IMG/VR virus record: IMGVR_UViG_3300042478_001888
Span: 1,910-65,909 of that record
Direction: 5' to 3' (one strand)
From: a virus
Taxonomy: Duplodnaviria; Caudoviricetes
DNA length: 64,000 bases
Both the position numbers and the translations under genes were made by a program. Below are positions 103 through 62,246 of this stretch, one piece after another. Below the pieces are notes generated by a model. It worked only from the letters and a program-made list of their open reading frames with translations. It made no database searches and had not been told where the DNA came from. How positions within the stretch are numbered: position 1 is the stretch's first letter; every line of letters begins with the position of its first letter.

Positions 103-291
103 TCATAACTCAATGTAATGGTTGGGATAATTCTTAGGGTTTGCCCTTCGGCGCTTATACCTTTCCCGCGCTACCTTTATTTGATTCTTGGTAAAGGTAT
201 AATTAGAAGGTGAGGTAAACAATAGGTGGATAACAATCCCAATGGCTAATGACCAAAGGGGAATAATAAGCAGCAGTATCATATCTTTCAA
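103..291 (-). CDS. small membrane protein, hypothetical
   Basis: 62 aa; N-terminal hydrophobic helix followed by a basic tail; co-oriented with neighbours. Confidence 0.6.
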   Translation of the reverse strand: MKDMILLLIIPLWSLAIGIVIHLLFTSPSNYTFTKNQIKVARERYKRRRANPKNYPNHYIEL

Positions 292-301
292 CTAATAAGG
301 G

Positions 302-913
302 TTAATAGTTTTTACAAGCAAGCCTTGCGTCTTCTAAAGTTTCTCCAAGGTATTCATTTAAGTCCCAGGAATAATAGTATCCAGCATCATAATCCCCTGT
401 TCCATTTGAGTAAGGTTCTTTAAGAAAATATATCTCATCTTCAGCATGCTCAAAAGGAGGTGTATCCCAAGATAAAACTTCGTTAATCTTTCCGTTTTCG
501 CAAACGAAAGAAGCTCCAAAACCTTGCTCTTCTTCCCATTCAAAAGTAAAGTTTGGGATAATTTTGGATAGCATCTCAAGTATGTTTAGTGAAACCGGAC
601 ACCAAGCTGTGGTAAAACGATATGTGTCTCCATCCATTTCGTTGTCATAGGCGCCCCACTTGGTACCCCAATTTTCATGCGCCCATTCATACCAATTATC
701 TTGTCCGTACTTTTTAATAAGCTCTTGGCTTTCTTCTTGTGTTATTCCAATCTTCCCATTTTCCTTTTCAAGTTGGGAAATGATTCGTGTTGGAGCGGTA
801 GTGTTTACCAGTTCTTTTGGCATAGGCACAAGGAACTGTGGTAGCCCTACTTTTGCAATTTCTTTTAATAGTTCTGAGTCAGAACTAAGGTGGCAATAAA
901 CGTGATTAGGCAT
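302..913 (-). CDS. DUF1281/YubB-like ferredoxin-fold protein
   Basis: Motifs NWYEWAHENWGTKWGA and FTTAWCP, typical of this phage/plasmid family. Confidence 0.7.
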   Translation of the reverse strand: MPNHVYCHLSSDSELLKEIAKVGLPQFLVPMPKELVNTTAPTRIISQLEKENGKIGITQEESQELIKKYGQDNWYEWAHENWGTKWGAYDNEMDGDTYRFTTAWCPVSLNILEMLSKIIPNFTFEWEEEQGFGASFVCENGKINEVLSWDTPPFEHAEDEIYFLKEPYSNGTGDYDAGYYYSWDLNEYLGETLEDARLACKNY

Positions 914-1003
914 AGTTGTAAGTATTAAAGGTGGTTAATGGTTAGTGGTTAATGGTTAGTGGTTAAATGTTAAGGGTTAAAGGTGCAGTATCATATTCAT
1001 CTA

Positions 1004-1225
1004 CTAAATGTGTAAAAGGGTTGATTTTAGATGGTGTTCGGTTGCCTTGATATATCCGAGTAGGAAAAAGTTAAGATGCTCGTAGCCTAGGGAGGGGCTT
1101 ATGCATATACCTTCCTTCGTGGCGTAGTAGTGTTTAATCTTTTTCCGCCTATCGTTGTGATACCATTCGTGTACCACTAGGCCGCATTTATCGGCGGCGT
1201 TCTGGAGTGATTGCAGTTCGTTCAT
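1004..1225 (-). CDS. hypothetical protein
   Basis: 73-aa ORF preceded by the TTAACC-rich leader seen before other genes in this region. Confidence 0.6.
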   Translation of the reverse strand: MNELQSLQNAADKCGLVVHEWYHNDRRKKIKHYYATKEGICISPSLGYEHLNFFLLGYIKATEHHLKSTLLHI

Positions 1226-1242
1226 AGGGTTAAGGGTTAATT

Positions 1243-1288
1243 TAAGGTTTGAATAAAGCGCCGGAATGGGTACCGGCGCCGAAGGTTA
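1243..1288. repeat. intergenic hairpin repeat, copy 1 (AAGGTTTGAA..AGCGCCGG-loop-CCGGCGCCGAA-GGTTA)
   Basis: Similar copies at 1968-2018 and 3315-3365; GCGCCGG/CCGGCGC stem. Confidence 0.85.
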
Positions 1289-1516
1289 TACATCAAGGTT
1301 GAGGTTGCTTAAATCAATGTTCAGGTCTGCAAACTCGCAGGCTTTCACGTGGTAGTAGTTTGCTATTTTAGTTTGCTCCGGCCTTGTAAAATTCCGCACG
1401 TTTACGGTCGTTTCAATTATCTGCTTATGCAGGGTTGAGAATTGACGCTCTGCAATGCCTAAAGCCTGTTGCAGTAAAGCAAATTGTTCTTCTGTTAATT
1501 TAATAGTTCGTGTCAT
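1286..1516 (-). CDS. hypothetical protein
   Basis: 76-aa ORF in the minus-strand gene array. Confidence 0.6.
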   Translation of the reverse strand: MTRTIKLTEEQFALLQQALGIAERQFSTLHKQIIETTVNVRNFTRPEQTKIANYYHVKACEFADLNIDLSNLNLDV

Positions 1517-1528
1517 GGTGTTAATGGG

Positions 1529-1957
1529 TTAAAGGTTAAAATTATCTGCAAAGGAGTAATAATCCTCCTCGGTTAGAATAATGTGGTCAAGTACTTGGCA
1601 GTCAAAGAATGCTGCCATGTCTTTAATTTTCTTTGTTATGTCCTTGTCCTGTTGGCTTGGCGTAAGGTTCCCAGATGGGTGGTTGTGGGCTAAGATAACC
1701 CCATAGCACATTGTTTCGGCGATGTACTTGGCGATGATTTTAATATCAACATAGGTCCCGGCCACGCCGCCTTGGCTAATCTTTACGAAGCCTACTGTGC
1801 TGTTTGCTCGGTTGACTAGGAGCATAAAAAAGCTCTCGTAGATTCCAATATCATCGGAGTAAAACTGCCGGATAAATTCTTCTGCTGCTTTGCTAGTGGT
1901 TATCTTGACCTTTGGAAAGTCGGTTTTTGTTTTTTTGATGGTTAGTTCAGGTGTCAT
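1529..1957 (-). CDS. radC: RadC-like JAB domain protein
   Basis: E...HNHPSGNLTPSQQD...LDHII JAB motif. Confidence 0.9.
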   Translation of the reverse strand: MTPELTIKKTKTDFPKVKITTSKAAEEFIRQFYSDDIGIYESFFMLLVNRANSTVGFVKISQGGVAGTYVDIKIIAKYIAETMCYGVILAHNHPSGNLTPSQQDKDITKKIKDMAAFFDCQVLDHIILTEEDYYSFADNFNL

Positions 1958-1967
1958 GGTTATTTAT

Positions 1968-2018: not shown

Positions 2019-2019
2019 T

Positions 2020-3279
2020 TTAATCGTTGTTAATCATTACCGGCATTAACAAAGAGGTAAGGTTAAAGAGCGAAGCCCGCGACTCACCAAAGTAGTGGAT
2101 TGTAACCTCGTCCGCCTCAATACTCTTTAGCACGTCGATAAGTTGCGCAGCATTGTACCCTATCTTAATACTTCCAGAGGCGGGTGCGGTGGCGGCAAAG
2201 TTCGTACCTCTGTCAAGGTCGGAGGCGCTTACATTCAGTCCTTCACCCTCGCAAGTCAATACCACTAGCTTTGTATCTTTGTGCGCTGCTTTAAGGGCAT
2301 TTTCTAGCAAAGGTAAAAGCGCCTTTTTGCTAAAGGTTAAGGTCGATTCGGCGCTGTCTGGATTCGGCATGATTGCTTCATACTTTGGATATATCGCATC
2401 AACCAACCATTCCCTTCCTAAAGTAACTCCAATATCTTCAAAGGTGGCGTAATCAGTATGTCCCTTAATTTGCGAATGTTTAAGAAGCTCTAGGGCTACC
2501 TTTGATAGAATCACCCCCTCGCTCTCAAATTGTGCCTCTAGGACGCGTAAACGGTGGGCATCGGTGGCGCAGATTTTACCATTAGCAAAGTAGGCGCCGG
2601 TCATTGCCACCCTCATTTCATCTTTGCCTAGGAACGTTTTGAGGGTGTCAAAAGCGTTAAGCGCGCCGGAGGTGATAAGTAGGTCGCCTTCTTTATATAT
2701 ATTAAAGACGTTATCGGTGGGCGTTACGCCTGCCTTCATTCCATTCTCAAAGGTGGCGATTCCTTCCTGAATGTTTACCGGTATGCCGTTGTCCTTAATA
2801 AACGAAGCGTCAATACTTACTTTGCCAAAGGTGGCGTCCATTTCGTAGTGAACCGGCCCTATCTTAGAGAAATAGCTTAGCACGTTACCCTCCAGGATTG
2901 CGTATGGTACCGCCTTGCTTATAGGTAAGATCCTGAACAGTTCTTTTACCCCAAACTTTGCGGAGCGCTTAGCTCGCGGAGGGGTTGGTGGCGTTGGTGG
3001 CGGTGTTGGCCTAGTTGGTGTTGGTGTTGGCCTAGTTGGTGTTGGTGGTGCATAGATAGGCGCCGAAACGACCTCAACAGTTGCTAAGGTAATGGGCTGA
3101 GGGTTGCCGATTGCAGCGCGTATTTCAACCTCCTTTGTCTTTGAGGCAATCCAACCTGGGCCGCCTTTTAGGTAGGGGTTGTACTTTGCCCCTAGGCTTC
3201 GCAGCGTATCTTTTAGGGGTTTGGTGTCGCCATAAATTTTAATGGCTTTCTCCGAGTAGGTTTCAATTAAAATGTTCAT
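2020..3279 (-). CDS. DNA polymerase III beta-clamp-like protein with extra N-terminal domain and Pro/Thr linker
   Basis: ATDAHRL, YPKYEAIMP, IGYNAAQLIDVL and LLMPV are DnaN-like; N-terminal YSEKAI..GDTKP..GAKYN domain; PTPTRP repeat linker. Confidence 0.75.
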   Translation of the reverse strand: MNILIETYSEKAIKIYGDTKPLKDTLRSLGAKYNPYLKGGPGWIASKTKEVEIRAAIGNPQPITLATVEVVSAPIYAPPTPTRPTPTPTRPTPPPTPPTPPRAKRSAKFGVKELFRILPISKAVPYAILEGNVLSYFSKIGPVHYEMDATFGKVSIDASFIKDNGIPVNIQEGIATFENGMKAGVTPTDNVFNIYKEGDLLITSGALNAFDTLKTFLGKDEMRVAMTGAYFANGKICATDAHRLRVLEAQFESEGVILSKVALELLKHSQIKGHTDYATFEDIGVTLGREWLVDAIYPKYEAIMPNPDSAESTLTFSKKALLPLLENALKAAHKDTKLVVLTCEGEGLNVSASDLDRGTNFAATAPASGSIKIGYNAAQLIDVLKSIEADEVTIHYFGESRASLFNLTSLLMPVMINND

Positions 3280-3314: not shown

Positions 3315-3365
3315 AAAGGTTTGAAAAAGAGCGCCGATTTTTAGGCCGGCGCCGAAAAGGTTAAT
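3315..3365. repeat. intergenic hairpin repeat, copy 3
   Basis: aaaggtttgaaaaagagcgccgatttttaggccggcgccgaaaaggtta. Confidence 0.85.
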
Positions 3366-3959: not shown

Positions 3960-4169
3960 TTAATCGCGCCGAAGGGCATTCCCTAAATTAGCGGCCAAAA
4001 AAATACAAAGTAAAGCGAGCAAAGAACTCATAAAGAGTAAAAACCAGTCTTCCTTCATTACCGCCCAATAGAGTACTTGCAAAAAGAACCCAAGGGCACC
4101 GGCAAAAAATAAAACGTAAATAAGCTGCTGAACTTTGCGGTTGAGGAATGTAAACAAGATTAAAAGCAT
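3960..4169 (-). CDS. small membrane protein
   Basis: Two hydrophobic segments; start placed at the ATG of MLLILF. Confidence 0.5.
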   Translation of the reverse strand: MLLILFTFLNRKVQQLIYVLFFAGALGFFLQVLYWAVMKEDWFLLFMSSLLALLCIFLAANLGNALRRD

Positions 4170-4446: not shown

Positions 4447-4502
4447 GTGTTTTTGGTATTAAGGGTTAAAGGTTTCTGAATTATTTTAGGGCGCCGAAAG
4501 GC

Positions 4503-5402: not shown

Positions 5403-5614
5403 AACCCCAAGGCTCTTTACCCCGCCCCCTTTACCACAACCCTTTGCCAAACCCAAGGCTTCTTTACCTTCCCCCAAGGGCTGTTTGGCGGCTGTTTGCT
5501 TTTCTCTGGGTTACCTTGTCTTTTGGTTACCTTATTGGGTTCTCTGGGGGGTGGGTGTTGATGGGGGGGGTGTTTTTTTGGTAGGGGTGCTTTTCGGCGC
5601 GGTTGGGTAATGGG

Positions 5615-6140: not shown

Positions 6141-6380
6141 TCAAATTTGATTAGTAGGTGCTGCATTTATTGAATCGCATAAATGTTTGGCTAGATCGTA
6201 ATCTTGCTGGGTTTCATACTTGTGGCTGGGGGTAGGCTTCCCCCACACCCTTAGCCATCTTTGGGAAGGGGCAGTGCCCAGGTTGGTGTAGAACTCTATA
6301 ACGCTTACCTTGTCTCCAGAGGTTATTTCTAGCTCTGTGCCTAGGTAGTTGTTGTCTAGGGGAAGGATTCTAGCTCTCAT
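6141..6380 (-). CDS. hypothetical protein
   Basis: ATGA-coupled to the upstream phosphoesterase gene. Confidence 0.6.
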   Translation of the reverse strand: MRARILPLDNNYLGTELEITSGDKVSVIEFYTNLGTAPSQRWLRVWGKPTPSHKYETQQDYDLAKHLCDSINAAPTNQI

Positions 6381-7414
6381 CGTACTTTACGGTTATCAAT
6401 GCGAAAGTTTTCAACGCTGAAATCGCCATCTTCATCAATCTCAACAATCGCAGCCCCGTGATTCCATTTCGTGTATGCGAATGGGCGGTATGCTGGTTGC
6501 AAGTCGCAAAGGCAACCCGTAGAAAAGCAAGCAACTCCTTTGCTGTTCAGGTCGCTTTCGTGATGCTCCGATGTTTGGTGGTTGTGGCCAGCCAATACAG
6601 ATGCCTTACCCCGCAGAAACAATCCCCGTGCTGGGTTTACCGGGCTGAATATGCTATCGCCAAATTCGTGGCCATGTAGTACACTTAGCTTGCCAAACTT
6701 GGCGTGTTGGCGGCTGTCGATTAACTCAATATCAAGTTCATCAAGTCCCAATGCGGCCTTCAGTTGAAGCCCCGGCAGGGTAATCAACTCAGGTGCGTTT
6801 TGAAGTATGTACCTATCCCAGCGGTCTTCGTGGTTGCCCAGCTTGTAGAAAACAGGCAGCCCAAGGCTTACAAGGCCAGCCAAGAAGTCCCGAACCATTT
6901 GCACCTCAACGGGGGCCGACATCAACGCTGGGTCTTTTTCCCATCGGCTAATCTTAGCAAAGTCAATAACATCGCCGTTTAGGTATATCGCATCAACGCC
7001 GTTTTTGAACCCGTAGTCGATAGCCGTTTCGATTGCTGGCAGTTCGTGGTATGGGAAATGAAGGTCGGACAAAACCAAAGGCTTGCGGATGTTGTTCGGC
7101 AGATGCCATACCTCTTTGCTGGTCTTTTCCCCTCGGCCCATGAACGCTTGCATGTACTCGCTTGGCTTCATTTGCTCAGGGTTGTATAGGTTTTCCCGCA
7201 ACGACCCGCTGGCTGTTGCAAAGTCTTTTAGCCTGTCGCCTGCCGCACCCGTTCGGTAGCGGATTGAACATCGCACCCTTTCAACCTCTTGATTCGTTTG
7301 CTCAAACGCACCCGGGTTTTCCATTACAATTTTGCGGGCTAATGTTCGTTTGAAGAAGCCCGGTTCTTGGGTATCAACGTAGCTGTCTATGATTTTTACT
7401 TGTTGTTCGGTCAT
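6377..7414 (-). CDS. calcineurin-like metallophosphoesterase
   Basis: SDLH, GDVID, GNHE, HGHE and GHNH motifs. Confidence 0.9.
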   Translation of the reverse strand: MTEQQVKIIDSYVDTQEPGFFKRTLARKIVMENPGAFEQTNQEVERVRCSIRYRTGAAGDRLKDFATASGSLRENLYNPEQMKPSEYMQAFMGRGEKTSKEVWHLPNNIRKPLVLSDLHFPYHELPAIETAIDYGFKNGVDAIYLNGDVIDFAKISRWEKDPALMSAPVEVQMVRDFLAGLVSLGLPVFYKLGNHEDRWDRYILQNAPELITLPGLQLKAALGLDELDIELIDSRQHAKFGKLSVLHGHEFGDSIFSPVNPARGLFLRGKASVLAGHNHQTSEHHESDLNSKGVACFSTGCLCDLQPAYRPFAYTKWNHGAAIVEIDEDGDFSVENFRIDNRKVR

Positions 7415-7699
7415 AGGTTTTTTTTGGGGACTAAGATATGCAAAAAAAAACCAACCCCCACTTTTTCAAGATGGGGGCTGGTAAAGACGACAGGAGACAT
7501 CACAAAGATACTTAATTTTTACTTTTCGGCGCGGTGGGGTATTCGTAACATTTATTGCCAATATTTGTTACGATAATCGACATAAAACCGATTACCATAA
7601 CCTAACGTAACAACTTGTAAGAAAAGGGATAAAACGCTTTGTTTTTGCGTCTTTAATGACAAGTTAGTAGTTAGGGCGGGATTCCGCCACCTGACTATT

Positions 7700-7912
7700 T
7701 TAATCAACTTCTATATCCTTTAATTCAACATCTTCACCATTAATGTGTTTATAAACGTTATCAAAAAACTCAGCCAATAATTTATAATCTTCTGGTATCA
7801 TCCTACAATAATCAAAAGCTGGTATAACACCATATATTTGATGTTGTACTACTTTTCCTATCCCATCAGGAATATATTCAAAAACAATGTTTCCTCTAAA
7901 AATGTATTTCAT
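7700..7912 (-). CDS. hypothetical protein
   Basis: 70-aa AT-rich ORF between tRNA-like fragments. Confidence 0.55.
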   Translation of the reverse strand: MKYIFRGNIVFEYIPDGIGKVVQHQIYGVIPAFDYCRMIPEDYKLLAEFFDNVYKHINGEDVELKDIEVD

Positions 7913-7913
7913 C

Positions 7914-8372
7914 TCACTTCTTTTTTAGCAGCCGAAGACAGGGGCAGACTTTTTTCTTCCTCCAATTTCTTTGTGATTCAAATTTTAAATCTTTACAATC
8001 TCTACATCTGCATCCTCTATTGTATGCCCCAATACTGGGGTGCTTCTTTAATTTTTCTGTATCAATGCTACCTAAAAGCTTTATTCTATTTTTATCAAAA
8101 GCATCTTGCCAATTGTCTTTTGCTGTACCTAAAAACAAGTGTTCTGGATTAACGCACTTTCTATTATCACAAGTGTGGCAAACATACATACCTTTAGGTA
8201 TCTCACCTTTATGTATTTCATAAGAAACTCTATGAGAATCTATTACTTTCCCATTTATTTTAAATGCCCCATAACCAGTTTTACCCCTTAAACAGGAAGT
8301 CCATATCCAACAAGTTTCTGTTTTTTGTATTTTATTAAAGAATCTTTCCATGACCACATATTTTGTAGTCAT
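7914..8372 (-). CDS. HNH homing endonuclease
   Basis: [36 protein letters not shown]. Confidence 0.9.
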
Positions 8373-8443
8373 AAATGTACGAACTTTTTTATTTAAAAAC
8401 AAGAGATGAAGGATGCATTTCTACCTCCTTCATGCATCTTACA

Positions 8444-9310: not shown

Positions 9311-9320
9311 TTGGGAAAAT

Positions 9321-23917: not shown

Positions 23918-23935
23918 CCCAAAAACGCCGAAAAG

Positions 23936-31787: not shown

Positions 31788-31813
31788 TAAAACGCGCCGA
31801 AAAGCAATAATCA

Positions 31814-52188: not shown

Positions 52189-52499
52189 AGGTTTGATTTT
52201 ACTTTTTCCCAGTAGTTAAGGGTTGATTCTTTAAGGTGTCCTTTCGGCCCGCCATTCCATTTCCGGGCAATAACCTCAGCGCTTTTATATCCGCTAACTT
52301 TTACCCACTTAGCAAAGGCTTCCTTCGACTTATCGCAATCGAGCCTATCCTCTAAGGTAAACTGTATGCCAATACTATTGAAGTGTTGCACCATTGTAGG
52401 GCGGATTTGCAAGCACCCTTCCGCATCGCCATTCCGCGCCGAAGGGTTACCCCCACTTTCTACCATAACGATAGCAGCAATTAAAACTAAAATATTCAT
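52185..52499 (-). CDS. lysozyme-like / transglycosylase SLT domain protein
   Basis: VESGGN..A..GCLQI..ARKWNGGP..YW. Confidence 0.75.
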   Translation of the reverse strand: MNILVLIAAIVMVESGGNPSARNGDAEGCLQIRPTMVQHFNSIGIQFTLEDRLDCDKSKEAFAKWVKVSGYKSAEVIARKWNGGPKGHLKESTLNYWEKVKSNL

Positions 52500-52989: not shown

Positions 52990-53102
52990 TTCTTAACTAC
53001 TAGTATAAAGATTTGTGTTTTACATTCTTTGCATTTATACACCTTCTCAGGTGTTCTTTCGGGCTTTATTAACGCCCCAGAGCATATTGGGCAGTGTTTC
53101 AT
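52986..53102 (-). CDS. 38-aa zinc-ribbon peptide (MKHCPICSG...YKCKECK)
   Basis: Two CxxC pairs; coupled to both neighbours; read from the sequence. Confidence 0.55.
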   Translation of the reverse strand: MKHCPICSGALIKPERTPEKVYKCKECKTQIFILVVKK

Positions 53103-54154
53103 AATTTAGAAAGCCATTGGTTGTAAACTTGCTCTGCGATTTTTGCGGTCATTAAAGGCGGTACGCTCATACCGATTAGGTATTGAGGTTTATTATCACA
53201 AAAGTCATAATCTTTCGGATAAGAACCACACTCACAAAGCTCATCGAAATTTCTATATCTTGGTTCATCAAATAAAACACATTGGTCATTACCAAGTATT
53301 GTGTTTATTGTTCCTGTTTGATATATGAACTTTGATCCAAAATGTAAAAACTTTTTACCAAACTCCCTTTCGTTTATTATTTCAAAACTTAAATCTCCAA
53401 CCTTTCTTAAGTCCCATATTTTTTTCATATTATCGGATAAAGGTCTGTCAGTATAGTTATGATAAATATCTTTGAAAGGTATCTCATGTTCATTAAACTC
53501 AAGTGTAAGTTTAGGGACTCTAGTGTACAAATCGGCGTTCTCTAAAAACTGCCCAGCTAAATCTTTACGCAAAGCAACAAAGAAAACCCTTTCTCTACGC
53601 TGTGGCACACCCATTTTGCTTGCATCTAAAAGCCAATGTTGAACGATATACCCAGCCTTATCAAACGCTTCATAAATCTTCCTAACATATTCAATAGCAC
53701 CTCCAAGCAACAAACCTTTTACGTTTTCGGCAATGACTACTTTTGGTTGTAGCTTTTCGGCCAAATCAATAAAGTCAAAAAACAAGGTGTCAAGAACTTG
53801 TTCTGCTTGCCCTTCACGAAACACCTTTTCTTTACCCCAATCCTTTTCACGATTGCCGGCCATTGAAAAACTACTGCAAGGCGGTGACCCATCAAGAATA
53901 TCCAACTCGTACAATTCTTGTGGCAAGTCCTCACGTAACTTGAATGCTTGTATTGGTTCTAAATAAGCATACTTTGGGTTATGGTTTGTCTTGTATGCAC
54001 CCATCATCTTTGGGTCAATTTCGTTACAACCAAGAACATCAAACCCGGCCAATTTATATCCCATTGTTGAACCTCCTCCACAAGCAAAGCAACTAAACAC
54101 CTTTCCTTTATCTTTGGTAAATACTGCGTCTTTAAGCGTCCACTTGTAGTTCAT
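53099..54154 (-). CDS. dcm: DNA cytosine-5 methyltransferase
   Basis: FACGGG, GSPPC, ENV, QRRER and GMSVPP motifs. Confidence 0.92.
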   Translation of the reverse strand: MNYKWTLKDAVFTKDKGKVFSCFACGGGSTMGYKLAGFDVLGCNEIDPKMMGAYKTNHNPKYAYLEPIQAFKLREDLPQELYELDILDGSPPCSSFSMAGNREKDWGKEKVFREGQAEQVLDTLFFDFIDLAEKLQPKVVIAENVKGLLLGGAIEYVRKIYEAFDKAGYIVQHWLLDASKMGVPQRRERVFFVALRKDLAGQFLENADLYTRVPKLTLEFNEHEIPFKDIYHNYTDRPLSDNMKKIWDLRKVGDLSFEIINEREFGKKFLHFGSKFIYQTGTINTILGNDQCVLFDEPRYRNFDELCECGSYPKDYDFCDNKPQYLIGMSVPPLMTAKIAEQVYNQWLSKL

Positions 54155-54996
54155 AACAATCCGTTATTCTTAGATTTAATTGGTCGAGAGCCAAACTCAT
54201 TACGATACCTTTCATAAACGCCTCGCAAGGTAATGTTTATTTCCTTTCCGTCAAACTTTCTACCTTCAAACCTTCCAGCAAGTAATCTATCTGCGATATT
54301 CTGCTCCACGCCCATTCTATTCAAGATACAGCATATCTTAAAAACGTATAGGTTTCGCTGCCCAGGCCGAAAGGTTATGCCCGTATTCTGCACTCCCTTT
54401 TCCGCTATCCTTAACGCATCATCTATACCCCTTACCTCCATAGGGTTGAAGTAGATAGGCTTCTCCTCAGGCATGATGGGTGGCGTGTAGGTAGGTGCTT
54501 CTAGGTTTAGGTATGCTTCGGGGTCATAGGACAAGTTACACTGCTTGTTTACAGGCTTTCCGGCCTTGTCGGAAAGGCCGAAGGCAAACTCTCTATCAAT
54601 ACACTCCCATGCCCACTTGTGATGGTAGTTGTCCTTTGGGATAGCTGTTCTAAAGCCAACTTTAACTCCTCCCCTTGGGGAACGGAACAAAAATAAAACG
54701 TATGTTGTGTCAAGGTAGGATAGTACCCTTTCGGCGCGTTGTTTTCCATCAATGTCTAAGTGTATAATTCCAGAATGTTTAACTAAGTTCTCAGCCTTCT
54801 TTCCCCCAGAAAATACCCCAGAGGGGAAAAAGGCCGGAAGCATCATCTTCGCAGCATCAGCATCTTCCTTTTTCATCTTCCTAATTGCTCCAATCCTATC
54901 CCTCATGGCATCGCTTTTAATATGCCCTATGATAGTCTTGATATGCACAGGCTTACCCTCTAACTGGTAATTGTCTGGGAGAACGGTGCAAATCAT
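54151..54996 (-). CDS. BT4734/VirE-N-like primase-polymerase domain with PriCT-like C-terminus
   Basis: LPAFFPSGVF, HSGIIHLDID, SPRGGVK, LSYDPEAY and GQRN motifs. Confidence 0.8.
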   Translation of the reverse strand: MICTVLPDNYQLEGKPVHIKTIIGHIKSDAMRDRIGAIRKMKKEDADAAKMMLPAFFPSGVFSGGKKAENLVKHSGIIHLDIDGKQRAERVLSYLDTTYVLFLFRSPRGGVKVGFRTAIPKDNYHHKWAWECIDREFAFGLSDKAGKPVNKQCNLSYDPEAYLNLEAPTYTPPIMPEEKPIYFNPMEVRGIDDALRIAEKGVQNTGITFRPGQRNLYVFKICCILNRMGVEQNIADRLLAGRFEGRKFDGKEINITLRGVYERYRNEFGSRPIKSKNNGLL

Positions 54997-55724
54997 AATA
55001 GCTTGGGTTGAATTTGAGATATACGCTTTTCGGCGACCTTAATGTATTCGGCAAACAATTCGCTGCCAATATAGTTTCGGTTTTCGCTTATTGCCGCGAC
55101 TGCTGTTGTTCCGCTTCCCATATATGGGTCGTAAACCAAATCGCCTTTATCCGTTGCAGATAAAATGCAATTCAATGGAAATGAAATAGGGAAAGGTGCT
55201 GGGTGCCCATTTGAAGCATCGGGGCTAATATCCCAAACGCTTTTTTTATACAAAGCCATATCCCTATAAAACTTTGGCCTTGCAATCTTGTCTTTTTTAA
55301 TCCAAAAAACATATTCAGTAATAGGGTAAAAGTAGCTTACATCAAGTTTTGGGGTGTTTTTTCTATTCCAAATAATCACTTGTTTAAGGGGAAAATCATA
55401 TACATACTTTGGGTGTATTGTTGTATGCAAATGCAAAATATCAATGTGGTTGTAAAATATACTGCCAGTCGGCTTGAGTATTCTTATGCACTCGCTTAAT
55501 ACTTGCCTTTGTTGTTTTTCGTATTCTTCTGGGTGTAATTTATCATTAAAATCACCATACACTATTTTCCTTGACTTGGTTCTAAAGTCGCCGTTGTTTT
55601 GGTTTTGGTTCATACTCCAAAAGGACTTATTGTAAGGCGGCGAAGTAACTACCAAGTCCACGAAATTGTCAGGCATTCTTGCCATTGTGTCAAGGCAGTT
55701 CTCGTTGTGAATTTGATTTATCAT
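54993..55724 (-). CDS. DNA N4-cytosine/N6-adenine methyltransferase
   Basis: TSPPY, HPAPFP and YDPYMGSGTT motifs. Confidence 0.9.
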   Translation of the reverse strand: MINQIHNENCLDTMARMPDNFVDLVVTSPPYNKSFWSMNQNQNNGDFRTKSRKIVYGDFNDKLHPEEYEKQQRQVLSECIRILKPTGSIFYNHIDILHLHTTIHPKYVYDFPLKQVIIWNRKNTPKLDVSYFYPITEYVFWIKKDKIARPKFYRDMALYKKSVWDISPDASNGHPAPFPISFPLNCILSATDKGDLVYDPYMGSGTTAVAAISENRNYIGSELFAEYIKVAEKRISQIQPKLL

Positions 55725-56770
55725 ATCATCACCGGCATGAAGTACAAGGCAACATCGCCCTTAATAATTCCTACCACTCGGTTATCTGCTTGGAAGCCAA
55801 TGGTAGCCTCGCCAATCATTCCCACAGCTTGAAGCAACTGCTTGCCGTTTAACCCTACCTCATTCTCTTCAAGCAATCCCGGCATCTCTTCCTCATAGTT
55901 CTTGCCAAAGTCAATATCCTCAGAAGCTACCTTCCCCTTGCCAATTCTAATCAGGGAAGTAGCCTTCGGGCTAAAAGATATACACCTTTCCACAGCACCT
56001 AAAAACTCCGGCAGGGAAACCTCGCAAAGCACTGGGTACTCTTTAATAATCACACTTTCAATAACCTCTAATTTCATTGGGTTGTCGGCAGTACGCATGA
56101 ACAAAGAGGTAATGCCATCGCTAAACTGATGCCACTTCTCAGATGCACCAACATGAACTATGCCTTGCATACTGGCAACCACCGGGATATACCTTGGGGT
56201 TATGCCCACAATCCTACCATCGTTTTCCTCTACCCTGTCTATGTACTTAACCTCTGAGAGATAAACACTATACGCATTGGTGGCGTAGCAATACACCTTA
56301 TCCCTTCGTGTTTGTAGGTTTACTTGGCACATTTGTGGCCGCAGATCATCATTGCCAGCGAACCTGCCAGCCAAGGAAAGGTGTGAAACAAGGTCTTTAA
56401 CCGGCTCGGAAAATAGCGCTGGGGCTAAGGTATAGTTAAAGGATAGTGCCGAAGAACTGTCTTGGAGTGGCACTTGGCCTTTACCCCTGCCGCTTTTGAA
56501 GTATAGCACATCGGAGGCGGTAAGCCCTATGTCTTCGGCGCTTCCCTTATTTGCGATTGTTTCAAGGTCATAGTATGAAACATAAAAGTCATTGGGAATA
56601 GTGTCGGGGAAAGCCTCAATGTTAATCAATATCGCGGCATCTAACCCAGCGCAAGATATTGTCCTGTCTGTTACCCTCAGCCAAGAAGTTGCTGGTGCGG
56701 TGCTTTTTGCTTTTGCTACTGGCGCTAAGGCTGCCAATGCGTTTTTTAGTTGTGTTCTAGTTACTACCAT
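55721..56770 (-). CDS. DNA polymerase III beta-clamp-like protein
   Basis: DDLRPQM, YATNAY, VGLNGKQL and FMPVMI motifs; 349 aa. Confidence 0.7.
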   Translation of the reverse strand: MVVTRTQLKNALAALAPVAKAKSTAPATSWLRVTDRTISCAGLDAAILINIEAFPDTIPNDFYVSYYDLETIANKGSAEDIGLTASDVLYFKSGRGKGQVPLQDSSSALSFNYTLAPALFSEPVKDLVSHLSLAGRFAGNDDLRPQMCQVNLQTRRDKVYCYATNAYSVYLSEVKYIDRVEENDGRIVGITPRYIPVVASMQGIVHVGASEKWHQFSDGITSLFMRTADNPMKLEVIESVIIKEYPVLCEVSLPEFLGAVERCISFSPKATSLIRIGKGKVASEDIDFGKNYEEEMPGLLEENEVGLNGKQLLQAVGMIGEATIGFQADNRVVGIIKGDVALYFMPVMI

Positions 56771-58359
56771 GTTTTTATGTAATTGTATATTTCTTCAAAG
56801 ATATTTTCCTTTTTCATATTATATGGCTTACCATCAATAATTTTATCAATGTCCTCCATTTTGTTCCCCATTAAGTTCCAGATATGCTCGTCAATAGTAT
56901 CTTTTACGAGTATGGTATAGATGTTCACTGGCTTGGTCTGGCCGGCACGATACACCCTACTCACTGCCTGGGCGAAGTCAGTAGGTACAAATGCCCAATT
57001 CAAGAAGAGTACATCGGAAGCGTTTTGAAGCTCAATAGAGGTCCCTGCGGCCCTCATATTGCCAATGAATACCTTGCACCTATTATCTCCAGTAAACCTT
57101 CTAATAATGTCTCCACGCTTCTCTGTGGCAACGCTCCCATCGATATAAGCCGCCGAAGGGTATAACTTATACACCTCTTGCAAGGGGGCGGTATAACTAC
57201 CAAACACCACAGCCTTTTTCCCAGCCTCAATGATATTGTCAATAGTTTCCTTAATGATTGGCACTTTGGCTAAAGATATGATTCGATTTAGGGAATGGAT
57301 ATTGTTTTCAAGCTGCTGCCTGGTTCTAACCTCCTCCTCGCAGATTCTTTTAATTTCAGCCTCGTACTGTTCTAGCCACTGGCCATCGCCCTTCACATTG
57401 TAAAGCACATAGTTTTTCTTTGGCATATCCCAGCAATCTTCCAGCCGATACCTTACCATAAAGTTTGCCATTTCGCGTCTAAGCTGGGGGATATTCTTTG
57501 CCCCTTTCACTTTAAAGCCATCTTTCTCCAAGAAATTAAGGTCAAACTTCAACTTGTTGGAGCCTAAAGGGTGGCCGGCAAGTTTAAGGTAAGCAAAGAA
57601 ATCATCTGCCCTATTGGTGTTGGGTGTGCCAGAGGCAAAGGTAATATGGGCATCAGAGCCTTTAAGGATAGCCTTCACAGCCTTAAACCTTTGGGTTTTG
57701 GTACTCTTGATCCGTTGGCACTCGTCTAGGATAATGTGCTTTATGCCCTTGCTTCTAAGGTAATCAACACTCCTATGCAATAGGTCATAGTTGATAATGA
57801 TAAACTTTTCGTTTAGGGCTTGAATAAAGTGGCGGCGCTGGGAATACACTACGGTAAACTCAAAGGAGTTAAATCCCCACTGCTCACTCAGGGAGGTTAC
57901 CCAGTTGTCTTTGGCACTGGCCTCACAAACTATTAAAGTTGGGTAGAGGTTTTTGTACTTAGACTTCATGATGGTGGTAATGGTTTTGCCGGTGCCTTGG
58001 TCTAGGGCTGCTAGGGTATGCTTGTTGGTGCAAGCAAACATTAGGGTGTCTATTTGGTGGTGGCGTAGCTTCCTGCCGTTGAGGGGGAATAGGGAGTGTA
58101 CCTTGGTGTCAAACATTTTGTAGAGTTTGTTGTATGCTACCTTTAGCTTTTCGGCGATTATGATGCCTTGGGGAGACTTCCAATCTATGCCTCTATCATC
58201 AAGGAGATTCTTTACCGCCTCTTTGCGGAGCGCCGAAAGGTTACCCTTCCAATAGGCTTTCCCCCCCACCACAACCTTTGTCATACCATACAGCTCTGCA
58301 TAATACTCTCCCTCCCTATACTCTAGATATAGGTTTCCATTCTCCTTTAAGTGCATCAT
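56764..58359 (-). CDS. SNF2-like helicase
   Basis: DQGTGKT, LDECQ, SGTP and QAVSRVYRAGQ motifs. Confidence 0.9.
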   Translation of the reverse strand: MMHLKENGNLYLEYREGEYYAELYGMTKVVVGGKAYWKGNLSALRKEAVKNLLDDRGIDWKSPQGIIIAEKLKVAYNKLYKMFDTKVHSLFPLNGRKLRHHQIDTLMFACTNKHTLAALDQGTGKTITTIMKSKYKNLYPTLIVCEASAKDNWVTSLSEQWGFNSFEFTVVYSQRRHFIQALNEKFIIINYDLLHRSVDYLRSKGIKHIILDECQRIKSTKTQRFKAVKAILKGSDAHITFASGTPNTNRADDFFAYLKLAGHPLGSNKLKFDLNFLEKDGFKVKGAKNIPQLRREMANFMVRYRLEDCWDMPKKNYVLYNVKGDGQWLEQYEAEIKRICEEEVRTRQQLENNIHSLNRIISLAKVPIIKETIDNIIEAGKKAVVFGSYTAPLQEVYKLYPSAAYIDGSVATEKRGDIIRRFTGDNRCKVFIGNMRAAGTSIELQNASDVLFLNWAFVPTDFAQAVSRVYRAGQTKPVNIYTILVKDTIDEHIWNLMGNKMEDIDKIIDGKPYNMKKENIFEEIYNYIKTW

Positions 58360-58820: not shown

Positions 58821-60071
58821 TTAAAGTATTTCCTCTGTGAATTTAATCTCTACACCTTCCTCTGCGTCCCAGCCAACCTTTTCAAAGATAAGCTGAATAT
58901 CCTCTCCGGCCAAGTCAACAATCCGCTCAAAGGTATCTTTGTCCATTGAGTTCATGTCTAGCTTCATTACCCTAAAGTTTGAGCCTAAAGCGCGGAAGAT
59001 ATGGAAGCCTACCTCGTATATCTTGGCAGTGTTTATCTGCCCTTCCTCAAAGGGTAGGCCGTTTAGGTAAACACCATCATCATCAAACGATAAGCCTTCA
59101 ACCGGCAAGGAACTGCTGGAGAGTATCTCTGCCTTTTCCCTGTCTATGTCAGCGAGTTTATTGGTTAAGGAAACACTTGCCTTTTTGTAGTATTGGAGTT
59201 CTTGGTGTTGGGCTATGAGTGCCTCTTGGATTTTTACTTTGGCGTTATGCTCTTCGGCGGCCTTTAGCTTTTCGGATATTTGTTCTCCCGAGGGCTTTTC
59301 CCTTTTCTTTAACCAAGCATCAGCCTTTTCAATCTCTGCCTTTAGGGTTTCGTTTTCAAGCTCTAATGCTTTAATCTTTTCCCGGTAGCCCTCAATCGCC
59401 GAAAGGTTATCATTGAGCTTATCAAGCCTCTCCGCCTTGCCACTTTCAGCCCTAACATAAAGCTCAACTTCTTTCCCTACATTCTGCATCTGGGAATAAA
59501 TATCCGAGGTGTCAATAGCCTTTAGCATTTCCCCCAACTCTTGACCTTTGAGCTTACCTTCGTACTCAGAAACCTTTCGGTTAACATCTGTACGATCCTC
59601 ATAGGCCTTTTTCCTTTCAATATCTAACAGGTCTAATTCTTTCTTCCTACCAGACAAAGTTTTAAGAAGCTCAATTTGCTCGTTTTTCTTGCGTCTAAGG
59701 AAGTTTTCCACTACGTCAAAGGAGATAGTGCCAAGCATCTGCCGAAAGGCCTTTATACCTAACTTCTGGCCTTGGGAGTTATGCACTGTGATATTCCCTT
59801 CGGTTTTACCGGTGTTGTTTGACCATACAGCCCTTACCTTGTAGGTATCTTGCTCATCTCCCACCTCCACAATTACCTCTGCCATAGTTTCCCCTTTACG
59901 GATTACCTCTGTGGGGTGGCCTTGGCCGGAAAGGGTGGAGAGGAAGGCTTGAATGGTTGATGTCTTACCGGCACCATTGGGCGCGGTAACAATGAACGAC
60001 TTGCCATCTACGTTTATCTGGGCTTCGGATATGCCCTTGTAGTTCTTAATGTGTGCGCTTTGTAGCTTCAT
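58821..60071 (-). CDS. SMC/SbcC-like AAA ATPase with coiled coil
   Basis: IKNYKGI, APNGAGKTS Walker A, long coiled coil, NGLPF. Confidence 0.8.
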   Translation of the reverse strand: MKLQSAHIKNYKGISEAQINVDGKSFIVTAPNGAGKTSTIQAFLSTLSGQGHPTEVIRKGETMAEVIVEVGDEQDTYKVRAVWSNNTGKTEGNITVHNSQGQKLGIKAFRQMLGTISFDVVENFLRRKKNEQIELLKTLSGRKKELDLLDIERKKAYEDRTDVNRKVSEYEGKLKGQELGEMLKAIDTSDIYSQMQNVGKEVELYVRAESGKAERLDKLNDNLSAIEGYREKIKALELENETLKAEIEKADAWLKKREKPSGEQISEKLKAAEEHNAKVKIQEALIAQHQELQYYKKASVSLTNKLADIDREKAEILSSSSLPVEGLSFDDDGVYLNGLPFEEGQINTAKIYEVGFHIFRALGSNFRVMKLDMNSMDKDTFERIVDLAGEDIQLIFEKVGWDAEEGVEIKFTEEIL

Positions 60072-60328: not shown

Positions 60329-60537
60329 GGTTTATTGGTTAAAGGTTTCGTTGTACTATCGTTCACCGCTGCTGCAATTGTTTGTAATATCCAAAATTCT
60401 CCGTGTTTAAAAGCCTCATTACTCTGCTCCTTCTCCATTTCTTTGGCTTGATAAAAATCAACTGCTGAAAGTTTACCATTTTCATTTAGTTGCACTTCCA
60501 ACCATTCTACCGCTGTTTGTTGTTTGTTGTTGCTCAT
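60325..60537 (-). CDS. KQQTAVE-family protein (C-terminus frameshifted)
   Basis: KQQTAVEWL..EMEKEQ; the family end YNETFNQ* lies in another frame. Confidence 0.6.
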   Translation of the reverse strand: MSNNKQQTAVEWLEVQLNENGKLSAVDFYQAKEMEKEQSNEAFKHGEFWILQTIAAAVNDSTTKPLTNKP

Positions 60538-60540
60538 AAG

Positions 60541-60793
60541 TTATTTGTTATAGGTTTCGTTGTAGTATTTTTCAGCGTCTGCCATTGGGTCATCATCATT
60601 CCAACCGTTGTTTGAATAGGCGGATTATCTGCTCCTTCTCCAGTTCTTTAGCTTGTTCGCAAAAGTTAATAGCTTTGACTAATCCAATTCTATAATCCCC
60701 TGTACGATTTGTGCCAAGTTGATTGTGGGCAGATTTTCTTATTTCTTCTTTTAGCTGGCTAATTACCAATTCTAACGCTGTTTGCTGTGGCAT
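60541..60793 (-). pseudogene. KQQTAVE-family gene with frameshift
   Basis: MPQQTALE..EKEQII, then AYSNNGW..AEKYYNETYNK* in a shifted frame. Confidence 0.55.
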
Positions 60794-60794
60794 A

Positions 60795-61583
60795 TTACTT
60801 CTTTTTTTGTTGTTCAAACCATTCTTTTTTTGCTTTTGGGAATGAATAATTTTCTCCTCTATATAACCATCCATTATAAAATGCATTATGTAAATCTTCC
60901 TCACTATACATTCTTTCAGCTTGAAATTTAGCACCATTATTAAATATATTTCTTGGTTCTTCATTCAAATCAACTGCCTTCATTGGAAAATACATTAGCC
61001 TTATTGGATATAATCTTTCAGCAGCTTCTTCATGAGTTTCTTGTTTAGGTTCTAAAGCCCCCTTCAACCTCATATAGTTTTCAGCTCTTTGCTTAGCTTC
61101 TTCGGTAGGTTCTTCAAGAGTTTTTTGTAAAGGTTCACAATCACAAGTTATAGTATGACCACAATAACATTTAATTTGTTTAGGTTCTTCTTGTGGAAGA
61201 ATGATTTTGTATCGCCAAGTTCCATCCGGAGAAACATTACCCATTTTAAACCCAAACATAGTACCATTTCCTTCCCATTCGTTTTCAACCTCAACCCTCT
61301 CACAACTTGGATTCTTAACAAACCATTCTAAGAACTCATTGTCAATAGGTTGTACCCCTTCTGCGATTAGGTCTGGGTTGTCGGTTAGAATGATTTTTTT
61401 ACACCAATTACTATGATTTACATTCTTTTCATAGATTAAATCATCACACTTATCTAACTTACCATTTAGTGTATTTAAAAACCAATCTCCCTCTTTAATT
61501 CTCTCATCATTAGTGATGTAAAGGTATTGATGCAGAACATCAGCGCCTTCTTGCTCTTTTGTAATTAAATGTACGTTTGTCAT
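60795..61583 (-). CDS. mosaic hypothetical protein of Bacteroidota phages
   Basis: KKIILTD.PDLI..GVQ.ID.EFLEWFVKNPSCE, EEPKQ and ERMYSEED modules. Confidence 0.7.
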   Translation of the reverse strand: MTNVHLITKEQEGADVLHQYLYITNDERIKEGDWFLNTLNGKLDKCDDLIYEKNVNHSNWCKKIILTDNPDLIAEGVQPIDNEFLEWFVKNPSCERVEVENEWEGNGTMFGFKMGNVSPDGTWRYKIILPQEEPKQIKCYCGHTITCDCEPLQKTLEEPTEEAKQRAENYMRLKGALEPKQETHEEAAERLYPIRLMYFPMKAVDLNEEPRNIFNNGAKFQAERMYSEEDLHNAFYNGWLYRGENYSFPKAKKEWFEQQKKK

Positions 61584-61765
61584 GGTGTTTGTGTTTTAAT
61601 TTGTTTACTTAAAGATTTAAGTTCGTTAATGAGTTGGCTTACCTCGCTTTTGGTTAGCGATGTTTTGTAATAATAGTCGCAGCATTCTCCAATAAACAAT
61701 TCTCCGCTGGGACTAACTTCAAAAAAAACAATTCTTGCTTCCTCAAGTTTTTTGAGTATTGGCAT
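61580..61765 (-). CDS. hypothetical protein
   Basis: 61 aa, coupled. Confidence 0.5.
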   Translation of the reverse strand: MPILKKLEEARIVFFEVSPSGELFIGECCDYYYKTSLTKSEVSQLINELKSLSKQIKTQTP

Positions 61766-61776
61766 GGTTTTGTGTA

Positions 61777-62007
61777 TTAAAGGTTAGTAGGCTGCGACCA
61801 GTCAATGCGGTAGATTGCGTTCTTGTGTTCTACTACCTCGAAGCCGTTTATTTTTAGCCTTTGAATGTCTTCATTGGCAATCGGGCCTTTTACCCAGCAG
61901 TACATTTCGCCTTGCTTAGCCTTGTTAATGCAGGCGGCTTCGATTTCGGCCATTAAAATTCTTGGCTTGATGTTTGCCAAGTTGTGAAGGTGGTTTGCGT
62001 AAATCAT
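61777..62007 (-). CDS. hypothetical protein
   Basis: 76-aa ORF. Confidence 0.55.
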   Translation of the reverse strand: MIYANHLHNLANIKPRILMAEIEAACINKAKQGEMYCWVKGPIANEDIQRLKINGFEVVEHKNAIYRIDWSQPTNL

Positions 62008-62018
62008 GGTGTTTGTTG

Positions 62019-62246
62019 TTAATTGTTTATCTCGTTAAGTTCAATTTGCAAGCTGCTAATCATTGATGATACTCTGCCCTTGGCAAACTCAGCCTCAACA
62101 GGCATATAGCCGAGGGCAAGGCTTAACTGCTCAATGGCGAAGCGTAGCCTTTCGGCGTTTTCCCTCTCCCTGGCAACCTTAAACAACTCCTTACCACCGT
62201 ACATATTTGGCAATAACATCTCTTCTAAGAAATCAACGCCACTCAT
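62019..62246 (-). CDS. hypothetical protein
   Basis: 75-aa ORF. Confidence 0.55.
   Translation of the reverse strand: MSGVDFLEEMLLPNMYGGKELFKVARERENAERLRFAIEQLSLALGYMPVEAEFAKGRVSSMISSLQIELNEINN

Follow-up and report, generated by a model that had tools for sequence, protein, structure and literature searches.

CGCCGAA, a clade-specific DNA signal with a strand-composition footprint in a lake-water phage

Why should a phage carry one asymmetric heptanucleotide roughly once per kilobase, in both orientations and both inside and outside its genes, and why should the composition of the DNA strand change at it? The question is raised by the word CGCCGAA in a virus of the class Caudoviricetes (Duplodnaviria; IMG/VR record IMGVR_UViG_3300042478_001888). 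The window analysed here is the 64,000 nucleotides (nt) from base 1910 to base 65909 of a 65,909 bp viral contig rated 93% complete; positions are numbered from the first base of the window. An earlier note, made from the letters alone, had put the number of copies at about 70, against four or five expected. Both figures held up: the window holds 74 exact copies (48 on the + strand and 26 on the − strand, ten of them intergenic), and 100 dinucleotide-preserving shuffles gave 3.92 ± 1.79 copies with a maximum of 13. The whole 65.9 kb contig has 76 copies (49 forward and 27 reverse); the reversed word, used as a control, occurs 2 + 5 times. The results below indicate that CGCCGAA, which has its strongest form in GCGCCGAA, is a clade-specific cis-acting DNA signal that is read strand-specifically and not on the protein or the RNA. 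As to its role, the reading that we prefer, and offer tentatively from sequence patterns, is that it may be a polar break-, nick- or Chi-like signal for DNA processing and recombination.

Enrichment, conservation and clade range

CGCCGAA has one property in common with Chi-type sequences, being short, asymmetric and the most over-represented 7-mer of the window, at 15 times the mononucleotide expectation (74 copies against 3.9 in the shuffles) and with a mean spacing of ∼0.87 kb. The earlier note had named codon pairs for Ala-Glu as the confounding factor and a codon-aware null as the check. Shuffling synonymous codons within genes, which keeps every protein and the codon usage of each gene and leaves the ten intergenic copies untouched, gave 17.0 ± 2.5 copies (200 runs, maximum 24); for the genic copies, ∼7 are expected under this protein-preserving shuffle and 64 were found. 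As the shuffle is so far exceeded, selection acts at the DNA level, and the enrichment is real. Half of the genic copies (32 of 64) do encode Ala-Glu; 45 of the 120 Ala-Glu pairs are spelled GCC-GAA, and a C precedes 32 of these 45. The sense copies fall into codon phases 2, 1 and 0 in numbers of 32, 10 and 3, the antisense copies in numbers of 14, 3 and 2 and the remaining ten are intergenic, with the reservation that these classes rest on crude calls of open reading frames and that the copies at 23926 and 24112 lie in a doubtful frame on the − strand. An artefact of codon or dipeptide usage is ruled out by the synonymous shuffle together with the control words described below, which show no change in composition.

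The word itself is sharply defined. Its 21 one-mismatch variants occur near expectation, GGCCGAA alone being clearly raised (4.2-fold). A weak extended context of ∼32 nt (−18 to +13) surrounds the 7-nt core, at which the consensus is exact; among the 76 copies there is a C at −15 in 51, a G at −1 in 37 and a G at +9 in 49, and an element C[CG][GA]A at −15 accompanies 26 of the 76 against a background of 1.4%. The copies are only weakly enriched towards the ends of genes (P = 0.06–0.16), and their enrichment in intergenic DNA has a P value of 0.036. Under a maximal-order Markov model a different word, GTGCGTG/CACGCAC, tops the 7-mers window-wide (16 copies against 5.5 expected).

Comparison with relatives indicates that the copies are under purifying selection and were gained by selection. 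G001, a mosaic relative of 65.1 kb that is 78–100% identical in blocks, has 75 copies. At an overall divergence of 4.7% from G001, 66 of the 69 aligned copies are intact, and the divergence is 1.45% in the motif core and 3–5% in the flanks. With L021, at 17.7% nucleotide divergence, 15 of 23 aligned copies are intact, where ∼6 would be if the sites were neutral (0.823 to the seventh power); eight copies are present here only and seven in L021 only. The copy at 10117–10123 (+), for example, has no copy at the matching place in L021. The changes by which this genome and its relatives gain or lose the motif are clustered and often fully synonymous. The peptide KRRRY is spelled AAG CGT AGG CGA TAC in one form and AAG CGC CGA AGG TAT in the other, and the DAE at the copy at 12898–12904 (+) is GAC GCC GAA here and GAT GCA GAG in L021, three synonymous differences.

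The range of the signal is narrow. All 11 relatives with at least 95% portal identity are enriched (0.8–1.45 copies per kb); among ten relatives with 42–54% portal identity, nine have no CGCCGAA and one has a single copy. The top words of these distant relatives belong to a tandem 12-nt coding repeat, and no alternative dispersed motif was found among them. Their near-zero counts and the coding nature of their top words point to a signal that is young and clade-specific. The repeat is seen in L026, L031, L032 and L033 (for example L031, 1419–1550), with units ending in GACCAAGCT; it sits just downstream of the portal gene and its copy number differs between contigs. Two scans of the viral contigs of IMG/VR returned G001 as the single relative, and a blastn search with positions 26702–31162 against the phage collection gave no match. 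Twenty public lake-water runs contain the stretch at 8.6–18.5 kb almost word for word; the count is of runs with at least half of the sampled words of this 9.9 kb.

The strand-composition footprint

Around the copies the G+T content of the top strand departs from a baseline of 0.54 to 0.587 at −50 to −25 and to 0.475 at +25 to +50. The footprint peaks beside the copy and is back at baseline by about +150 to +200 on one side and −400 on the other. With arms of 100 nt, the flip from G+T-rich to A+C-rich is positive at 56 of the 74 copies, negative at 15 and zero at three (z = 6.8 against random sites). A motif-centred profile at third codon positions, which the earlier note had proposed as a check, gave the inflection against random sites that it foresaw: G+T is 0.665 on the 5′ side and 0.522 on the 3′ side (z = 8.2). 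At first codon positions the flip has a z of 4.2, and at second positions it is absent (z = 1.4). It holds deep inside genes (z = 6.4–7.4 for copies at least 100 to 200 nt within a gene, the comparison being with random positions of that gene), which disposes of gene boundaries as a confounding factor, and it persists at isolated copies with no other within 250 nt (0.074, n = 50). When all 5-, 6- and 7-mers with enough copies are ranked by their flip, CGCCGAA and its sub-words are the top outliers (t = 6.3–7.6, with a null standard deviation of 1.2–1.3). Near-variants away from true copies show no flip ([AGT]GCCGAA, −0.004, n = 23; other CCGAA, 0.001, n = 43) and neither do other Ala-Glu codon pairs (−0.013, n = 114). 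The flip is strongest when the copy is preceded by G, i.e. in the form GCGCCGAA (0.118, 33 positive and 4 negative, n = 37), and falls to 0.02 with A or C at −1. It is also found in relatives, at copies that have no match here: among 33 of these it is positive at 26 and negative at six, although the three sets from which they are drawn may overlap.

The sign of the flip is the reverse of that of a bidirectional origin, as the earlier note had remarked: both strands are G+T-rich 5′ of the site and A+C-rich 3′ of it, and a replication origin at the copies is rejected on this ground. The 7-mer AAACGTA (20 copies in the window against 8.1 expected, for example at 4112, 26935, 28428, 54342 and 63368) has the opposite, origin-like flip (d = −0.082, t = −5.0), the strongest negative one among 1151 7-mers, and has no extended consensus. 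Shifts from G+T excess to A+C excess are familiar from replication origins and termini, where they are read as a record of single-strand exposure. The signal here is of the same type; those switches come once or twice per genome and extend over tens to thousands of kilobases, whereas here there are ∼75 local, terminus-like switches, each spanning 150–400 nt and centred on one word.

A composition that is G+T-rich 5′ and A+C-rich 3′ is invariant under reverse complementation, so no global polarity is needed to account for it, and for the same reason the flip alone does not separate a cause that is symmetric in the DNA from one that follows gene direction. A split of the copies by class is informative here. 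Read on the motif strand at third positions, G+T in the 3′ arm changes by −0.105 at the 45 sense copies, −0.099 at the 19 antisense copies and −0.089 at the ten intergenic copies, with A and C up and G and T down in all three classes. In the 5′ arm the change is +0.077 at sense and +0.098 at intergenic copies, and only +0.003 at antisense copies. The 3′ arm thus follows the orientation of the motif and antisense copies lack the 5′ arm, which argues for a polar rather than a symmetric process. The earlier note had described the flip as holding regardless of motif orientation and gene strand; the flip is real, but its independence of motif orientation is incomplete.

Substitutions among close genomes, polarised by more distant ones over ∼20 kb, indicate that the 5′-flank bias is still being fed: the per-base rate ratio of changes towards G/T over changes towards A/C is 1.55 (56:46) in 5′ flanks, against 0.98 (69:73) in 3′ flanks and 0.92 (168:210) elsewhere. 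The local peak, the return to baseline and the sign of the footprint together fit removal of a strand in the 5′→3′ direction starting at the site.

Copies, junctions and genes along the window

The orientation of the copies is regional. Between 20.3 and 50.3 kb there are 35 + and 5 − copies; elsewhere there are 13 + and 21 − (Fisher test, 1.9e-5). The switch, at ∼20.3 kb, falls between the last copy of a mostly − block (20265–20271, −, intergenic) and the first of a mostly + block (20354–20360, +), within an intergenic hub where a 22-nt near-palindrome is present three times. These repeats (direct, inverted, direct) and the G/C-rich hairpin and T run that follow them occupy 19953–20021 and 20143–20185 of the window, and TAnnTTTG-like words near 20205 and 20289 resemble the consensus of the −7 box of Bacteroidota promoters. 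Among the structural genes on the plus strand at 8.6–18.3 kb the ratio of sense to antisense copies is 3:6, compared with 42:13 for the other genic copies (P = 0.016); as the copies there are mostly antisense, orientation does not simply follow transcription, and a sense preference accounts for part of the bias. A switch of this kind would be compatible with a polar signal laid out about a replication origin or an end of the DNA. Cluster A mycobacteriophages carry stoperators, repressor sites found chiefly in short gaps between genes and pointing the way transcription runs. Like these, the copies here are asymmetric and dispersed, number in the tens and have an orientation bias; unlike them, 64 of 74 are genic, and the 3:6 ratio and the mere ten intergenic copies led us to reject operator sites of this kind.

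Mosaic junctions fall near the copies more often than expected. Our list takes in every indel or replacement relative to G001, L018 and L021, in the coordinates of this genome, and comprises 30 events with 55 points, three of the points that are not near a copy being one place counted in three comparisons. Eight of the 55 points have a copy no more than 17 nt away, where chance would give 2.6 (binomial P = 0.0044); the P values at 10, 30 and 60 nt are 0.008, 0.058 and 0.018. We regard the excess of junctions at copies as moderate. Two clean insertions begin just after a copy. A 239 bp segment at 1290–1528, present here and not in G001, starts 6 nt after the intergenic copy at 1277–1283 (+), and a 616 bp cassette at 9304–9919 (+), likewise missing from G001, is inserted 4 nt beyond the copy at 9293–9299 (−) and has a further copy within it at 9845–9851 (−). 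The cassette holds a methylase-like fragment that matches the C-terminal half of a PHROG 'DNA methyltransferase'. Similarity blocks with G001 stop 12 nt after the intergenic copy at 3350–3356 (+) and 17 nt after that at 46734–46740 (+). Junctions with L021 fall on the intergenic copy at 5593–5599 (−), 8 nt from the intergenic copy at 20042–20048 (−) and 4 nt from that at 23206–23212 (+), and one with L018 lies 7 nt from the intergenic copy at 7525–7531 (−). An HNH endonuclease gene at 7672–8399, a 728 bp insertion that is not in G001 and looks mobile, like the 9304–9919 cassette, lies 140 nt from the nearest copy. The earlier note had seen a duplication containing GCCGAA on both sides of this gene, which we could not confirm; there is one GCCGAA, ∼60 nt to the right of the insertion.

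A deletion segregates in the natural population. Roughly one quarter to one third of the viruses lack positions 33768–36500 (+), 2733 bp of a giant gene, in runs X1 and X7, where the depth at the deletion joint is 10.4 of ∼39 and 109 of ∼350, respectively, and the local depth is lower. The upstream element of the copy at 36518–36524 (+) has its first base at the right joint, 36501.

The giant gene (33436–42099) encodes a protein of 2887 residues with a C5 methylase domain at residues 1243–1538 (37162–38049, +; PF00145, E = 1.2e-30). The earlier note had this domain bracketed by the motif, and copies do stand on both sides of it: 37062–37068 (+) lies just before it, 37134–37140 (+) ends 22 nt before it and an 18-nt tandem of three copies (38088–38094, 38106–38112 and 38124–38130, all +) begins 39 nt after it. 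If the protein is in the virion, a virion-borne methylase would be unusual. The further intergenic copies are at 4492–4498, 31795–31801 and 42533–42539, all +.

The plain copies on the − strand are those at 147–153, 1715–1721, 2347–2353, 10955–10961, 11866–11872, 13446–13452, 17317–17323, 25520–25526, 30874–30880, 36690–36696, 37377–37383, 40008–40014, 50515–50521, 51727–51733, 54730–54736, 55029–55035, 56534–56540, 58150–58156, 59253–59259 and 62151–62157. Those on the + strand are at 3061–3067, 3967–3973, 8875–8881, 20830–20836, 21630–21636, 22173–22179, 23926–23932, 24112–24118, 25173–25179, 26021–26027, 26794–26800, 28533–28539, 31017–31023, 31301–31307, 33379–33385, 34122–34128, 35412–35418, 36798–36804, 38619–38625, 38706–38712, 39357–39363, 40560–40566, 41811–41817, 42378–42384, 44509–44515, 49280–49286, 50125–50131, 52437–52443, 57151–57157, 58231–58237 and 59397–59403.

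The window encodes several proteins of DNA processing, including nucleases, an SbcC-like ATPase and methylases, as had been anticipated from the reading frames. A PD-(D/E)XK exonuclease gene at 62389–63429 (−; PF12705, E = 1.4e-7; PHROG 2139 'exonuclease', E = 6e-46) is a candidate for a resection enzyme. The product of an SbcC/Rad50-like ATPase gene at 58821–60071 (−; AAA_23, E = 8.1e-8; PHROG 1499, with a weak match to PHROG 77, SbcC-like) is a candidate processing factor, and a metallophosphoesterase encoded at 6377–7414 (−; PF00149, E = 1.4e-7; PHROG 221, E = 1.2e-37) may be its SbcD/Mre11-like partner. There are also an SNF2-family ATPase/helicase gene at 56764–58359 (−; PF00176, E = 9.2e-20; PHROG 62), a free-standing C5 cytosine DNA methylase gene at 53099–54154 (−; PF00145, E = 1.8e-42), an N6/N4 DNA methylase gene at 54993–55724 (−; PF01555, E = 1.9e-39) and a primase-like gene with a BT4734-like N-terminal domain (E = 7.8e-12) and a weak match to a PHROG 'DNA primase/helicase'. 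Genes for a portal protein, RadC and the HNH endonuclease are present as well. The gene of a small serine recombinase (8657–9310; resolvase N-terminal domain, E = 4.9e-25) immediately precedes the packaging genes and has the motif copy at 9293 at its 3′ end. A protein of 1486 residues (26702–31162) has a crAssvirus muzzle domain (E = 9.7e-39), and the closest genomic homologues of the free-standing C5 methylase are mostly from Bacteroidota; these two similarities make a Bacteroidota host likely.

Many 6 bp palindromes are wholly missing from the contig. CCATGG (12 expected), GAATTC (11.9), GTATAC (15), CTGCAG (8.6) and CTATAG (7.8) have no copies, and GATC occurs 21 times against 173 expected; words of the GGCGCC, CCGG, GCGC and TGCGCA types are not avoided. 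The purge of palindromes and of GATC implies a genome shaped by restriction–modification, and the pattern suggests a host rich in restriction systems, with some of the sites covered by the phage's own methylases.

What the signal may do

The mechanism that we tentatively prefer would have the DNA repeatedly processed with 5′→3′ polarity at the CGCCGAA sites. This could come about by a nick, mainly on the motif strand, or by a break, followed by resection or nick translation; or a helicase–nuclease could be switched at the motif, as at Chi. By either route, and on both sides of the site, the strand whose 5′→3′ direction leads to it would be more often single-stranded or re-copied. The processing would serve recombination, whether in recombination-dependent replication and repair or in the exchange of gene modules, and the recogniser would be a phage-encoded enzyme or the AddAB of the probable Bacteroidota host. 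The origin of the footprint in strand exposure or repair synthesis, the cutting of the DNA and the identity of the enzyme are what we infer. As the footprint is partly tied to the orientation of the motif, a polar signal, such as a nick on one strand, a Chi-like site or a one-way barrier, fits better than a symmetric double-strand break. The earlier note had proposed that DNA is cut and resected, or that forks stall, at these sites; the polarity, the shape of the footprint and the moderate excess of junctions are in keeping with this proposal, so far as the process is taken to be polar. In its most specific form, which we consider possible if rather doubtful, the system would be the phage's own: a phage enzyme would nick or break at GCGCCGAA, nucleases would resect 5′→3′ and the resulting tails would prime recombination-dependent replication and the exchange of modules between co-infecting relatives.

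A number of results weigh against the polar processing signal. The DNA evidence comes from assembled contigs, the form in which all 24 listed public runs are kept; those of four runs were aligned to the genome and show population variants but no molecule ends. The 17 nt threshold was chosen after the junction list had been viewed, an earlier junction test on the ends of BLAST blocks gave P = 0.035–0.07, a test for local jumps in divergence gave P = 0.017–0.075 and a likelihood test of whether the copies partition the divergence from G001 was not significant (P = 0.23). The mapping of breakpoints in relatives, which the earlier note had called for, thus gave a moderate excess of junctions near copies and no significant partition. 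The absence of the 5′ arm at the 19 antisense copies tells against a break that is simple and symmetric. The bias of the flanks fits mutation bias and selection on composition alike. No sequence-specific nuclease was identified among the genes of the window, and the sole HNH gene is not in G001. The footprint is also absent from better known sites of both kinds. Phages T5, tf and the phiKMV-like phages have nicks at the consensus sequences 5′-R/GCGCRGG-3′, 5′-TACT/RTGMC-3′ and 5′-CGACxxxxxCCTA/CTCCGG-3′, respectively, at 4–14 physically mapped sites on one strand, according to the part of PMC3517423 drawn on here; the 14 mapped sites of tf (record HE611333) show no flip (7 positive and 7 negative). 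In P1, of which the first 50 kb were covered, the 27 Chi sites are likewise without one (13 positive and 13 negative). Nicking or the action of Chi alone need thus not leave a footprint, and the footprint is not general to phage nick sites or to Chi-rich phages, which makes it more unusual and at the same time weakens its equation with either. There are likenesses to the nick sites all the same: a strict consensus of 7–19 nt, positions in and between genes and, with T5, GCGC in both its consensus and the strong form here. The differences are the number of sites, 76 here, their presence on both strands (49/27) and the physical mapping of those in the other phages (PMC3517423, in part). Finally, the Chi-rich phages described so far lack recombination genes of their own, as far as the portion of PMC12315714 used here goes, and this phage has some.

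A narrower version of the Chi-like route would make CGCCGAA the Chi of the host's AddAB or RecBCD, hoarded by the phage to use or to survive the host helicase–nuclease. In LLS, P1 and the Pseudomonas phage MD8 the host Chi is the most frequent octamer, at a density of one per 1.9 kb (Zheng et al., 2025, PMC12315714, in part); CGCCGAA is likewise a short asymmetric top oligomer with a density of the order of one per 1–2 kb, selected beyond codon usage, biased in orientation over one 30 kb block and possibly linked to recombination. The likely host group also fits: AddAB is present in Bacteroides, whose Chi had yet to be found in 2010 (PMC2887965, in part). The orientation of Chi in the Chi-rich phages is near-uniform (20:3 and 32:0; PMC12315714, in part), and here it is 35:5 in the 30 kb block and 13:21 elsewhere; their word is the known Chi of the host; and where they lack a recombination module of their own, this phage has an exonuclease and an SbcC-like ATPase. 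The 27 P1 Chi sites, unlike the copies of CGCCGAA, carry no composition footprint in their flanks, and the relatives with 42–54% portal identity are nearly without copies (none in nine of ten, one in the tenth). Among 401 sampled Bacteroidota genomes, which may not include the host, none has a phage-like enrichment of CGCCGAA, the best ratio to the reversed word being ∼4.5. In G375, which has this highest ratio, the word is unremarkable (Markov z = −0.9, no strand runs). L052, to which methylase homologues had led us as a possibly enriched genome, was rejected with 483 copies against 470 of the reversed control, and the methylase-homologue genomes G003–G006 are not enriched either. We therefore hold a host Chi to be doubtful but still in contention. 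Some of the Bacteroidota genomes are depleted of the word, with 0–1 copies against ∼350–650 of the reversed control in G117, G141, G365 and G317 and 10 against 191 in G193. In G141 not one copy of the 5-mer CGCCG/CGGCG occurs in 280 kb at 43% G+C. The depletion could stem from restriction or from an error that assembly makes systematically where a word is methylated; since G141 lacks the whole 5-mer and does not share the phage's avoidance of palindromes, it is neither a lead to the host nor specific to the 7-mer.

The footprint also bears on proteins, of the phage or the host, that would bind the word without cutting. Replication forks or RNA polymerase might be blocked at CGCCGAA from one side or pause there, and the lagging template would be exposed beside stalled forks; on this reasoning the sign of the footprint fits, as do the tie of the 3′ arm to motif orientation, the weak context of ∼32 nt, which would suit a protein footprint, and the regional orientation bias, which would be the orientation that lets forks from an origin near 20.3 kb pass. 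We found no candidate for the binding protein, a load of 74 barriers on 64 kb would come at a cost, the excess of junctions is left unexplained and strong conservation is confined to the 7–8 nt core (1.45% against 3–5% in the flanks), so that we think a barrier unlikely. The spacing of ∼0.87 kb is within the range of Okazaki fragments. This, the primase-like gene and the switch at 20.3 kb, which would put the copies on the lagging template of a bidirectional origin, could be taken to mean that the word is the recognition site of the phage's own primase, selected at about one per kilobase on the lagging template of each arm. A primase site predicts a G+T-rich motif strand 3′ of the site, an argument that assumes C>T and A>G changes in single-stranded DNA and holds for either template strand, and the opposite is seen in all three classes of copies; in addition, the footprint returns to baseline on both sides with no sawtooth across the interval, and about one third of the copies are in the 'wrong' orientation. 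We consider this very unlikely. Methylation or host defence fares marginally worse. The phage has two C5 methylase domains and an N6/N4 methylase, and its genome is purged of many palindromes and of GATC and keeps words of the GGCGCC, CCGG and GCGC types, so CGCCGAA might be the target of a phage methylase or of a host defence or modification system, with the composition of the flanks a side effect or unrelated. Targets of restriction–modification are normally avoided or neutral and not enriched 15-fold through synonymous changes, methylated cytosines should decay although the core is the most conserved stretch, and nothing in such a scheme calls for a footprint of 150–400 nt.

Least credible of all is that the copies are the apexes of hairpins or of elements like miniature inverted-repeat transposable elements (MITEs), or that the whole pattern is an artefact of codons and amino acids. 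The observation behind the former is sound: as the earlier note had reported for the early region, the three intergenic copies at 1277, 2004 (2004–2010, +) and 3350 end GC-rich hairpins of the form GCGCCGG-N8-CCGGCGC, with the copy at the 3′ edge, and G+T-rich and A+C-rich arms could in principle pair. They pair no better than random sequence. The minimum free energy of motif-centred windows is that of random ones (−50.9 against −50.0 with windows of 100 nt, P = 0.74), the arm–arm duplex gives P = 0.78 and folding relative to shuffled arms has z values of −0.33 at the motif and −0.34 at random sites with a width of 40 nt and of −0.71 and −0.36 with 100 nt. Hairpins, cruciforms, repetitive extragenic palindromes and MITE-like repeats are rejected on these grounds, and no more than three copies, all intergenic, adjoin a hairpin. 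The artefact would draw on the 32 of 64 genic copies that encode Ala-Glu; the codon-preserving null is surpassed about ninefold, other Ala-Glu pairs show no flip and the effect is largest at third positions.

In the literature on over-represented phage motifs, strand asymmetry, hotspots, crAss-like phages and primase sites we found no footprint of this kind, and among the papers listed for CGCCGAA as a word none dealt with a phage signal; papers were covered without their supplements, and Supplemental Table S3 of PMC12315714 may list more Chi-rich phages. Phage genomes are mosaic, and DNA signals that direct recombination are known for very few of them, mainly as host Chi in some coliphages. 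In this widespread lake phage, selection that is both positive and purifying acts strongly on a short word, and each copy carries a footprint in strand composition of a kind normally restricted to replication origins and termini. If the system is the phage's own, ∼75 local mutational footprints would have been written by repeated exposure of single strands, and this would be the first viral case in which the use of hotspots can be read from base composition. If CGCCGAA is instead the Chi of a Bacteroidota AddAB, it would fill a gap stated in print (PMC2887965, in part). Should the footprint record strand exposure, base composition alone could map where the DNA of a virus opens, and scanning every phage genome with the motif-centred profile might then bring further signals of this type to light. 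This would also offer a handle on two old questions, namely what purpose the site-specific nicks of phages serve and how modules come to be exchanged at gene boundaries.

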